Source: Vairimorpha necatrix | Lineage: Eukaryota | Reading direction: 5' to 3' | Length of the DNA stretch: 64,000 nt | NCBI GenBank assembly: GCA_036630325.1 | Contig: CP142728.1 | Location: forward strand, 1,116,001-1,180,000 | Shown: positions 51,443-53,846 of the stretch, one piece after another | Position numbering within the stretch: the first letter of the stretch is position 1 | Layout: every line of letters begins with the position of its first letter | The notes under the pieces: generated by a model | What the model was told of the DNA's origin: nothing | The model's input: the letters and a program-made list of their open reading frames with translations, nothing else | Databases searched by the model: none | Translations under genes and position numbers: made by a program

Positions 51443-53160
51443 CTACTGCGGCTTTTCTTCGTCCTCAAAAAACCAGAGGTTTTTATAACCTCTCACCGTC
51501 TTACGATTTCCCAACTCTTTATGCACACCGTCGTAAACTCTTTGTGTATGATTTATTACCCCTTCTAATTTTGTATTAATTTCTTCAATGTGTGAGTTAA
51601 TTATCTTTACCTTTTCTTTTTGCTCTCGGGTTAAGTATAATCTACTAGAAAAAACGCATTCATAACGGTTAAACAGTTCACGTTTGGTTAAAATCTTTCC
51701 ATGTTTATACACAATATTTTTTTTAAGCCATAATCTAAAATCATCTTCGACAATTTTAACTGTTTCCAGCGCCAGCACGCACGCTTCGGGTGGATCTATA
51801 GTAAGATTTTTAAAATCTCGTAGTGAATGTATCAATAGAGCAAATAAAGAAGTTTTTAATGTTATATCTGTTTCTATCGCATGGCCCAGATCTCTATCCA
51901 TCTTTTTTTCATGTTTGTTCTTTGGTTTATCTACAAATTTAGATTGGAAAGGTAAGATTTTCACTCTTCTCCACAAAGCATCATCAACTGTTGAAAATGA
52001 GGGTATATCATTCATTGTTACTACGAATTTGGTTCTCAGTTTAAATCTAGATATTTTGTTTGAAAACAAATTTCTTGAAGAAATTTCATCAGAATTACAC
52101 AACCTTTTAATAAAATTAGTTTTCATTTTACCAGCTTCCGGCTCCGACAAAAACGCCACCTTCACTTTTTCTAATGCTTTAATTTCTGGGTTCGCTGTGC
52201 CGGCATTGTTGACTTCAACAGAGAAAAAATGAGATGGAAAGTTGCCGAAAATTCGCCAAAAACTATAGACAGAAGACGCATTAGTATGCTCTTCCCATTA
52301 CTTCCTACTCCTTTAAAAAATAGAAGTGTGTCGTTTGGATTACGGCTATCCATCCAGCTTGAAAACTGATACAAAGCATAATTAAGGACAGCGGTGTCCG
52401 GGAATATCGATTTAAGCAATTTAAATGCAGGCGTCACATCAGTTTTCTCATTAAAATCAAAGGCAAAACTTTTGCTAAAGTAATCGGTATCTGTGTAAGG
52501 CCTTATTTTATGAGTATTAAGACAATAAACTTTTGATTTCAGCGGAATAATGCTGTAATCATTGTCTAAGAGATCTACAAAATCTCTATCATTTATCGTA
52601 GCACGTAACAACAGTAATGTTCTATGCAAAATACTTGATCTGTCCATGTTCACTAAAAATCTGCTCCCAGCAACTTTCAACCTCTTAGGGAGGTCACTTT
52701 CCATCTTTAAAAAGTCACAAAATGGCTTGCAGAAATCACGTAAACATACGGCTAAAGTTGAATATAAATCCTTTTCGCTCGATATTATCCATAAATTGCC
52801 GGTCTTTGCATATAGTACCGAATTAGACCATTTAAACATTTTGCCGTATTTTGAGTTTACGAAAATTTTTTCCACTGAATCTGCAATGGGATATTCCACA
52901 AGTTCTTGGAATAAACGAAAACTTTTACTATCAAATCTATATTTTAGATTGTTGATATCAAACAACCATTCAAGAGAAGCATATTCTCCAACTGTTTCTT
53001 TTTCTCCGTCTATACAATGCTTTACCGAATCATTGTAAAGGTTCTGATTTTGGTCATAAGGATTAACATTCACATTAATATAATCTTTTACCTGATTTGT
53101 TTTCTGATATTTATCGCCTTTTATGGGAGCCAAAAAATTTTGTTCTCTCTCTTGTTTCAT
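51443..53160 (-). pseudogene. Virus-like D5-family (SF3) helicase, split by one -1 frameshift near 52224-52240
   Basis: D5_N-like region (LLDND..IIPLKSKVYCL...IRPY..DYFSK), Walker A GVGSNGKS, ANPEIKAL, Walker B VAFLSEPE, motif C VVTMN, DDALWRRVKILPF.SKF. Confidence 0.85.
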
Positions 53161-53846
53161 ATTAATTAAAATGGGTAAAAATTTTATTTTTAATTTATAC
53201 TAAATACTAGCGTATGTTTCGCATTTTTAAAAGTTATTTGCTTTGTTTTTTTTCTGAATTTATAAACATACTGGTTTTTTTAAAGGTTTCTTTATTTGTA
53301 TTTTAAACCTGATATATTAAAAATATTTTAAAATGATCTGATCTAACAATTTGATTAATTAACATATTCTATACTTTAAATAGATTTTTTAAATTATGCT
53401 TTTAGAATATTGGCGAACATAAGCTATTTTTTACTCTAAATAAAAAACATTGCATTGGCCTCGATCACGAGGCGTAAAATATCAATATTTCGTATATTGA
53501 CAAAACTAACGCACAATCTTTGAGTCTACAGTTACCGTCTAAAAATGTGATAAGAATTTACTGTTCAGATGTGGAAAGTATTCTAAGACACTAATTTATT
53601 TCCAACTAATGAGCATCATGACTTTTATTAGAAATAAATTATAAAAAAAGAAAATTTAAAAATCAAAGTTTGGGCATGGTAGATAAAACTTTTAAACGTT
53701 GTTCAATACAAAATATCGAAACACGTTAACACTTAAGAATTTTTTCGCATCACAAAATTTGAATGGATGAAGCATGGTTTTATTTATTCAATAAAAGCGT
53801 TTATAAATACATATAATTTGAAGGATTCAAAACAACTTATAGTTCT

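Follow-up and report, generated by a model that had tools for sequence, protein, structure and literature searches.

A frameshifted D5-type helicase gene in a Vairimorpha necatrix chromosome is a member of an old, diverged family

D5-like primase-helicases occur in Polintons and ‘Megavirales’, according to the passages on these genes in PMC4405056. Among such systems with solved structures, C962R (AsfvPrimPol) of African swine fever virus (ASFV) and the poxvirus protein D5, called E5 in mpox virus (MPXV), are known as hexamers (8iqi, 8wvz, 8apl, 9ilz). Here we describe a gene of this type on the minus strand of a chromosome of the microsporidian Vairimorpha necatrix, in a stretch of 64,000 nt (the window; all coordinates below are positions within it). 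The ASFV and poxvirus proteins are the best PDB matches of both halves of the gene, and all of them have in common a D5_N collar and a superfamily 3 (SF3) AAA+ core in which Walker A and B motifs, an arginine finger and the sensor-1 Asn are present; a comparable C-terminal tail is probably shared as well. The window gene differs in that its identity to them is just 14-21%, that it has neither an archaeo-eukaryotic primase (AEP) domain nor a zinc-finger/PriCT region, that it lies in a cellular chromosome and is frameshifted, and that the collar motif NGxxDL is changed (S209, K210, C213). It encodes a viral-type D5/SF3 helicase, as an earlier note on this DNA had maintained, and not an ordinary cellular ATPase; both its solved relatives and its place in a tree, within a primase-helicase clade that includes kin of a protein from a giant-virus metagenome-assembled genome (MAG), bear this out. 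The gene is one member of an old, diverged family, not an orphan insertion.

Also related are primase-helicases of ~910-990 amino acids (aa) from the same 32-row clade of our tree, among them P0160, P0018 and a protein of the giant-virus-MAG contig GVMAG-M-3300023174-59, which combine AEP, a Herpes_UL52-type zinc finger, D5_N and DUF5906. Their helicase half is the same as that of the microsporidian genes (joint clade, support 99/94). Whereas these proteins are full-length fusions encoded on contigs of up to 87-129 kb with viral-type neighbours, the window gene consists of the helicase half alone, and DUF5906 no longer scores on its two halves or on P0002, an intact V. necatrix paralog.

V. 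necatrix infects lepidopteran larvae. As described in sections of PMC11296320, the entomopoxviruses, ascoviruses and polinton-like viruses of Lepidoptera, which have the same ecological setting, possess D5-like primase-helicase and helicase-only genes that pass from one replicon to another, in some cases with no primase part that can be detected; we liken the window gene to them from that description, not by sequence comparison. According to the same sections these mobile helicases adjoin terminal inverted repeats (TIRs), tyrosine recombinases or GIY-YIG/T5orf172 nucleases, none of which stands beside the window gene. The passages of PMC11296320 on the spread of D5-like homologs name many in Trichomonas, Rhizophagus and chytrids, and there microsporidia go unmentioned. 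Endogenous giant-virus elements, including those of zoosporic fungi (Mycodnaviridae; PMC13533422), likewise place a Nucleocytoviricota-type core replication gene in a eukaryotic chromosome; they usually hold several viral hallmark genes together, whereas the window locus has a single ameliorated gene, of a family that diversified inside the host lineage.

The helicase gene and its frameshift

Two minus-strand open reading frames (ORFs) are the halves of one gene: ORF1 at 52171-53160 (329 aa) and, in another frame, ORF2 at 51443-52165, whose frame remains open upstream as far as 52297. In tblastn searches of the window, each of 13 family proteins yielded a pair of high-scoring segment pairs (HSPs), one in either frame, meeting at 52234-52261, and no further significant hit in the 64 kb. 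The joining of two ORFs into a D5/SF3 helicase of ~570 aa, put forward in the earlier note, is thus upheld by the 13/13 pairs of HSPs, by PHROG profiles matching both halves and by motifs seen in the sequence; what had gone unremarked is that a frameshift splits the ATPase site and that the public gene model masks it. Open frames by chance are excluded, since at this base make-up the probability of a stop is 0.081 per codon and frames of 307 and 264 open codons would arise with P ~6e-12 and ~2e-10. The window ORF starts at the position corresponding to residue 74 of P0002. The features of the gene are as follows.

51443..53160, minus strand: whole D5-type helicase gene, 571 codons over two frames plus stop TAG at 51443-51445
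53173..53183, minus strand: AATTTTTACCC, motif of host type at a distance of 13-23 nt upstream of the ATG
52432..52806, minus strand: D5_N (collar) region, residues 119-243; Pfam PF08706, E 4.7e-4, under cut-off
52288..52311, minus strand: Walker A / P-loop GVGSNGKS, residues 284-291, seen in the sequence
52195..52301, minus strand: 107-nt GT...AG ‘intron’ of the public model P0001, which takes out the residues from S287 on, the P-loop lysine among them, and restores the frame
52235..52240, minus strand: single-base frameshift; upstream frame ends ...FSATF, downstream frame begins PSHFF...; HSP ends at 52234-52261
52136..52159, minus strand: Walker B VAFLSEPE; E340 column 98% conserved
52010..52024, minus strand: motif C / sensor 1 VVTMN; N384 column 97% conserved
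51965..51973, minus strand: WRR arginine finger; R399 column 98% conserved
51470..51889, minus strand: C-terminal helical and beta tail behind the ATPase, from the second-half model and Foldseek alignments

The SF3 ATPase motif set (Walker A, Walker B, motif C Asn and arginine finger) is complete, spread over the two frames. The Walker A residues G284, G286, N288, G289, K290 and S291 fit columns that are 84-99% conserved among 181 relatives; the window protein keeps 27 of the 36 columns conserved at >=80% in this set, including every ATPase column (the six just named and E340, K352, R363, N384 and R399). The residues that depart are clustered in the collar motif, which reads SK..C in place of NG..D.

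Profile matches to the gene vary with the database. The D5_N-like region described in the earlier note is there, albeit as a weak match of ORF1 to Pfam D5_N that stays under the cut-off (20.9 versus 22.4 bits), while the same profile passes in relatives (P0002 28.9, P0004 34.6 and P0035 41.5 bits); Pox_D5 (PF03288), the other profile at issue, has no Pfam match in the window halves. The second half has no Pfam match, and DUF5906 (PF19263) at E<=0.01 matches neither window half nor P0002. We take the missing DUF5906 score as divergence and not absence, because PHROG profiles cover the helicase core (E 1.2e-18): the ‘DNA primase’ profile phrog_1156 (855 positions) is matched at 474-588 and then 598-780 across the halves (E 9.6e-9 and 1.2e-18), and phrog_1829 (772 positions) at 290-530 by the first and 543-715 by the second.

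AlphaFold models of each half, built on family alignments, point the same way. The first-half model has a pLDDT (predicted local distance difference test) above 90 at about residues 70-260, with the N-terminal 55 residues disordered, and its top PDB match in Foldseek is ASFV PrimPol/C962R (E 2.1e-5, TMq 0.51, residues ~60-260). The second-half model (mean pLDDT 87.8, 88-98 in the C-terminal tail region) aligns with ASFV PrimPol and MPXV E5 over 249-298 columns (E 8e-9 to 1e-6), at an overall root-mean-square deviation of ~24 Å, so that the domain orientation differs. In BFVD the leading matches of the first half are mostly D5 helicases of nucleocytoplasmic large DNA viruses (NCLDVs), among them chloriridovirus, Heterosigma akashiwo virus, mimivirus, Bodo saltans virus and ASFV, along with a few phage and ichnovirus entries. 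By sequence, too, ASFV C962R and poxvirus D5/E5 are the top solved relatives of the paralog P0002 (E 1.5e-7 and 2.9e-5); its neighbours in the ESM Atlas belong to both phage (Uroviricota) and Nucleocytoviricota clusters and are uninformative as to its origin.

The earlier note had seen no AEP primase, capsid or polB here, and Pfam scans and tblastn of the window agree. With the AEP-bearing relatives P0004, P0015, P0016, P0041, P0035 and P0160 as tblastn queries, no primase remnant was found upstream of the gene or elsewhere in the window, nor was a zinc-finger/PriCT region found in it.

The frameshift lies between Walker A and Walker B, where the downstream frame is reached by a one-base step back at ~52237. 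Across the break the window gene reads FGEFSATF / PSHFFSVEV where its paralogs have FGDFSESLPSNFFSVES; the first frame runs up to the break as ...GVGSNGKSILMRLLSIVFGEFSATF and the second carries on as PSHFFSVEVNNAGTANPEIKALEKVKVAFLSEPE..., while the equivalent stretch of intact paralogs is ...GSGSNGKSLLIRLLSSIFGDFSESLPSNFFSVES...AFLSNPE. Because a single base thus parts the two motifs, an active helicase could presumably not be made from the assembled haplotype as read. Apart from the frameshift there are no stops in 571 codons; with all catalytic residues retained as well, this suggests that the inactivation is recent or confined to one haplotype. The published V. necatrix assembly is telomere to telomere and was made with hifiasm from PacBio HiFi reads (mean quality value (QV) 34, 28 Gb; PMC10759460, in its account of the assembly), which makes an error in a run of 2-3 bases unlikely.

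In the public databases the gene appears as P0001, ‘putative DNA primase/helicase [Vairimorpha necatrix]’, which is 99% identical, lies on a 1,467,808-nt contig and is the sole long protein that shares words with the second half. Over the segment removed by its intron, P0001 passes from ...FFKGVG directly to TNPEIKAL.... We read this intron as a gene-finder artefact, because the codons deleted align residue by residue with every relative. The public model therefore masks the frameshift by an artificial intron that deletes the ATP-binding loop, and its name overstates the content, since no primase domain is encoded.

Family and phylogeny

Of the 779 proteins that a full HMMER search with the first half found at E<=1e-3, 25 reached E<=1e-10 and two reached E<=1e-30. 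After P0001 the best matches are the V. necatrix proteins P0002 (624 aa, intact, 39% identical to the window protein), P0003 (394 aa) and P0005 (525 aa), proteins of V. apis BRL 01, and the Logan proteins P0004 (991 aa) and P0010 (618 aa). V. necatrix thus has at least three paralogs of the gene, with 39-55% identity among the four copies; P0002, P0003 and P0005 are on contigs of 1.23, 1.28 and 1.07 Mb, which we take as other chromosomes. In the databases the V. apis relatives go by the names ‘vv d5-type primase helicase’, ‘d5-atpase-helicase’, ‘phage primase’ and ‘primase’; one 15,582-nt contig encodes three of these proteins (P0155, P0008 and P0206). On that contig models of 162 and 304 aa have adjacent accession numbers, and they may be one gene split by a frameshift, like the window gene. 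Nematocida displodere contributes a full-length relative, NEDG_01050 (P0035, 916 aa), on a 440,850-nt contig.

There are signs of decay in the family: some annotated relatives are short or gapped models (119, 162, 304, 363, 394 and 525 aa). Primase-less forms of ~620 aa are present in two species (V. necatrix P0002 and, at 629 aa, V. apis P0206). The N-terminal region and zinc-finger stretch of P0004 are common to the ~910-990-aa metagenomic proteins, several of which pass the Pfam cut-off for Herpes_UL52 (P0018 at 30.5 bits, P0160 at 22 bits), and are not in the 570-630-aa Vairimorpha forms. Six close relatives, P0004, P0015, P0016, P0041, P0052 and P0021, are encoded on Logan contigs of just 2.9-3.9 kb that hold little else than the helicase-family gene.

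Two further profile searches returned mostly metagenome proteins and missed the relatives P0003, P0007, P0035 and P0004; since known microsporidian relatives were missed, they say nothing on taxonomic spread. Scans of viral contigs with P0004, P0016, P0015 and P0041 found no relative, and P0160 alone gave a locus; scans of metagenome contigs found no match for P0022 and, for P0014, only a 24%-identical stretch (L002). The family is known by its database names, and our search of the literature on microsporidia together with D5-like/primase-helicase or giant-virus genes found no paper describing these genes. In the main text of the V. necatrix genome paper neither ‘primase’ nor ‘helicase’ occurs (PMC10759460).

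For the phylogeny, 244 candidates (proteins >=450 aa, to which P0003, P0007 and the joined window frames, with an X marking the break, were added) were reduced to 181 rows by dropping 56 that were >=55% identical to a kept row and 7 with short profile coverage, and all rows were trimmed to the helicase half. In a FastTree analysis of the 181 rows, the microsporidian sequences fall in a 32-row clade, apart from the majority, which has AEP_C962R-type domains. This clade was analysed with 12 chosen outgroups under LG+C20 PMSF in IQ-TREE (44 rows, 478 columns), and is itself supported at 99/94 against them. Within it the four V. necatrix copies are monophyletic (100/100) and group with the V. apis rows and P0010 (95/88; P0157 is called V. 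apis only via a 90% cluster), then with P0004 (98/95), then with P0041 and P0015 (98/97), and finally in a 16-row clade that includes Nematocida and holds eight unnamed sequences in all (100/100). The exact placement of P0035, P0022 and some others is unsure because of long branches.

The sister branch, of 9 rows, shares 40-58% identity with P0160 and with a protein encoded on the IMG/VR contig GVMAG-M-3300023174-59, where the neighbours of the helicase gene include Asn synthase, an MSV199/T5orf172 protein and DUF5672. We call the source of the family ‘giant-virus-type’ because of the kinship of this branch to the protein of the GVMAG-named contig and because of these gene neighbours. We infer a viral source for the window gene from a tree that holds no named NCLDV, polinton-like-virus or phage reference sequences. 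On the giant-virus-MAG contig (L001, 10001-14039), the gene of the 946-aa primase-helicase is directly followed by an MSV199/T5orf172 (GIY-YIG-like) gene, a helicase-nuclease pairing that is also discussed for mobile helicases in parts of PMC11296320.

Chromosomal surroundings and host-like features

Signals made of an AT-run and CCC are promoter features of microsporidia. The earlier note had placed such a host-type motif before the ATG, and the host-like character stands; the motif itself is corrected to AATTTTTACCC, with five T, and its CCC stands 15 nt ahead of the helicase ATG. An AT-run with CCC likewise precedes the ATG of the ORFs 346-912, 18742-20139, 29892-30938 and 32039-35572, and for 9 of 21 long ORFs (the helicase included) a CCC falls in the 20 nt ahead of the start codon, versus 8-10% of random 30-nt windows. 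The enrichment of the fuller pattern AATTTTN{1,8}CCC is modest, with 21 matches versus 12.5 ± 4 expected and at least 21 in 2 of 100 shuffles. The CCC pattern looks like a genome-wide start-site signal. CCC, often behind an AATTTTT-like run, was also noted 3-13 nt before the ATGs of eight further long ORFs, at 912, 5178, 6957, 18742, 26415, 29892, 31565 and 35572.

Codon usage agrees with that of the host as well. GC content at third codon positions is 0.29-0.31 in the helicase gene and 0.19-0.33 in the host genes of the window, and its distance in relative synonymous codon usage (RSCU) to the pooled host genes, 0.103, falls inside the spread of the host genes (0.076-0.175). Codon usage and upstream motif are thus host-like, in line with long residence and with the adaptation to the host that had been proposed.

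Pfam scans covered 21 of the 25 ATG-initiated ORFs of >=120 aa and nine smaller frames near the gene; three overlapping opposite-strand ORFs and one ORF inside the ORF2 stretch were omitted from the separate scan. These scans brought up nothing but host genes, two Ty3/gypsy elements and a fragment of a Merlin-type transposase. The host genes of the window are DnaJ, a GPN-type GTPase, an ABC transporter, UTP6, the largest subunit of RNA polymerase, hexokinase, a 2-oxoglutarate (2OG) oxygenase, SMC, two AAA ATPases, a PCI protein, aquaporin and two tRNAs. No major capsid protein (MCP), PolB, A32, VLTF3 or integrase belonging with the helicase gene is among the Pfam-scanned ORFs, and Rfam and tRNA scans gave nothing near it. 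There are no recognisable TIRs or target-site duplication around the gene, where the inverted repeats present are weak (31-36 nt, 75-81% match, AT-rich DNA), and the window has no second copy.

The helicase gene lies in a transposon-rich gap between host genes, which includes the following element.

53847-57701, plus strand: Ty3/gypsy element, apparently intact, starting 687 nt upstream of the helicase ATG

Its single gag-pol frame of 1209-1224 aa (protease, reverse transcriptase (RT), RNase H and integrase), identical 124-nt long terminal repeats (TG...CA) and 5-bp target duplication GTTCT make the insertion look recent. As a rough guide, contigs of an independent run, X1, have a word depth of 18.6-23.9 on this element, 2.9-4.4 on the helicase gene and 4.1-5.1 on a host AAA gene.

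Downstream of the helicase gene are ORF-free repeats on which X1 contigs are several-fold deeper. One is a 749-nt unit without ORFs at 49182-49930, flanked by perfect 55-nt direct repeats (49182-49236 and 49876-49930); the X1 contig depths there sum to ~60 versus 2-5 nearby, and for this reason it is probably a multi-copy element. A second stretch of high X1 depth is 50670-51036. Farther upstream of the helicase gene, three successive short minus-strand frames at 60942-62144, the first of which matches DDE_Tnp_IS1595 (Merlin/ISXO2-like transposase, E 4.3e-7), are probably a decayed Merlin-type DNA transposon. The second Ty3/gypsy element, at 26415-29501 on the plus strand, is broken, with zinc-knuckle gag, RT fragment and RNase H-integrase in separate frames, and stops just ahead of tRNA-Met at 29690-29760. 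The AAA-ATPase genes at 37192-38469 and 47373-48755 (both minus strand; 425 and 460 aa) are 9 kb apart and may be paralogs; the latter is the closest host neighbour of the helicase gene. A 77-aa frame at 45642-45872 that resembles Pox_int_trans (E 0.0054, under the cut-off) was dismissed as chance.

Origin and fate of the gene

The window gene is a resident, ameliorated gene, neither a fresh viral insertion nor a recognisable mobile element. We favour, with a probability of roughly 0.6, a family under birth-and-death dynamics whose helicase was once selfish and may have been co-opted in part, the window copy being recently inactivated or a haplotype-specific null. Birth-and-death dynamics, which we infer together with the loss of function, are favoured by the many short or gapped family models, by lineage-specific expansions in transposon-rich DNA and by the frameshift of the window copy. 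The ancestor would have been among the AEP-primase/helicase fusion proteins of giant-virus-type replicons, acquired by an ancestor of the Nosema/Vairimorpha group or by an older microsporidian. Duplication within genomes would have followed, with loss of the primase half in most copies, and the acquired gene would have taken up host codon usage and a host-type upstream signal. The intact protein would form a hexameric ring through its collar and move on single-stranded DNA by hydrolysing ATP at the subunit interfaces, Walker A and B coming from one subunit and the arginine finger from its neighbour; this mechanism is proposed on the strength of the solved structures of ASFV C962R and poxvirus D5/E5. 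In the window copy a single-base frameshift would have ended this activity, recently or in the assembled haplotype only.

Several points weigh against this reading. V. necatrix is described as tetraploid with four pseudo-haplotypes in the relevant part of PMC10759460, so that the frameshift may be allelic. One 309-letter X1 contig (~99% alike) covers 308 window positions across the break and must hold one extra letter somewhere in 51995-52302; as X1 contigs also show single gaps inside the intact host AAA gene, they cannot settle whether the frameshift is allelic. The copies, 39-55% identical, keep long ORFs and all catalytic residues, which speaks for long purifying selection and is more in keeping with a functional gene, be it a host or a selfish one, than with a relic. 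The ‘giant virus’ label rests on one contig name and on gene neighbours, and most tree rows are unnamed metagenome or Logan proteins. Another run, X2, has contigs for the AAA gene and for both the repeats and the gypsy element but leaves 51771-53605 uncovered, which is no evidence either way. A freshwater metagenome, run X3, holds two 151-letter pieces in 52355-52690 with 0 and 5 differences, at a depth of 2, too little to interpret.

Selection of this kind is what one would expect of a working domesticated gene, in which the ~570-630-aa primase-less form is kept in Nosema/Vairimorpha for tasks such as replication fork, repair or defence, and the frameshift is a null allele of one of the four haplotypes or a residual assembly error. 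We rank this reading second and consider it possible, though on balance unlikely. It would account for ~620-aa primase-less forms in both V. necatrix and V. apis, for the retention of all ATPase residues, for 571 codons without a stop in spite of a 0.081 chance per codon, for the host-like promoter motif and codon usage, and for the extra letter of the X1 contig across the break region. However, the HiFi data and hifiasm assembly leave little room for an error in so short a run, many family members are fragmentary, the expansions are species-specific in place of one-to-one orthologs, and the neighbourhood is rich in transposons. The gene could instead serve the replication of an undescribed, still mobile helicase-encoding element or of a recently integrated virus, and the earlier note had inclined to an endogenised virus or a mobile element. 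Duplication within the lineage, as implied by the separate clade of V. necatrix copies, the three V. apis proteins on one small contig, the six close relatives on contigs of 2.9-3.9 kb and the behaviour of D5-like genes as mobile modules in lepidopteran entomopoxviruses, ascoviruses and polinton-like viruses (as presented in sections of PMC11296320) would all suit such an element. We nonetheless regard it as improbable, as the 64 kb hold no second copy, TIRs and target-site duplication are lacking around the gene beyond short AT-rich inverted repeats, integrase, capsid and polB were not found nearby, the paralogs are too diverged to be recent copies, and the X1 depth on the gene is like that on the host AAA gene and far from that on gypsy. 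Nor does a lone endogenised virus fit an old family with at least three diverged V. necatrix paralogs, with kin in V. apis and Nematocida and with no co-located viral genes.

Two technical explanations have still less in their favour. Were the annotated 107-nt intron (52195-52301) real, the product would be a 536-aa D5-like collar/tail protein with no P-loop and a dead ATPase. The segment does begin with GT, end with AG and restore the frame, and P0001 uses it; yet its removal would cost the gene 35 codons, which can be aligned one residue after another with the Walker A region of all relatives, none of the 13 tblastn queries skips it, each reading on in two frames, and its lone TACTAA-like word stands near the 5' end. 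Microsporidian introns are few and short, with the branch site near the 3' end. We therefore consider a real intron very improbable. Contamination or an assembly chimera of viral DNA hardly deserves any weight: nothing was found in its support, the gene is set between host genes on a Mb-scale HiFi contig, its composition is host-like, and the independent run X1 holds it at ~99% identity.

A wider and more speculative proposal, to which we give a low probability, is that there is, or once was, a lineage of giant-virus-like or plasmid-like replicons peculiar to microsporidia. It is suggested by the 100/100 clade that joins Nosema/Vairimorpha, Nematocida and eight unnamed sequences, six of them on 2.9-3.9-kb contigs. 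The proteins of the 16-row clade would then serve to replicate a selfish element or virus, a long-standing companion of microsporidia, and the chromosomal copies, the window gene included, would be its fossil and domesticated offshoots. We know of no DNA virus or plasmid of microsporidia, and our literature search found none linked to these genes.

Microsporidia are among the most reduced eukaryotes. That a diversified family of giant-virus-type replication helicases occurs in three of their species or more, V. necatrix, V. apis and Nematocida displodere, is evidence from genomes that they were once in contact with large DNA viruses or related replicons. This contact may date to shared insect or nematode host cells. 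If some of the copies are functional, a viral replicative helicase would have been retained by a cell that has been stripped of much of its replication and repair kit.

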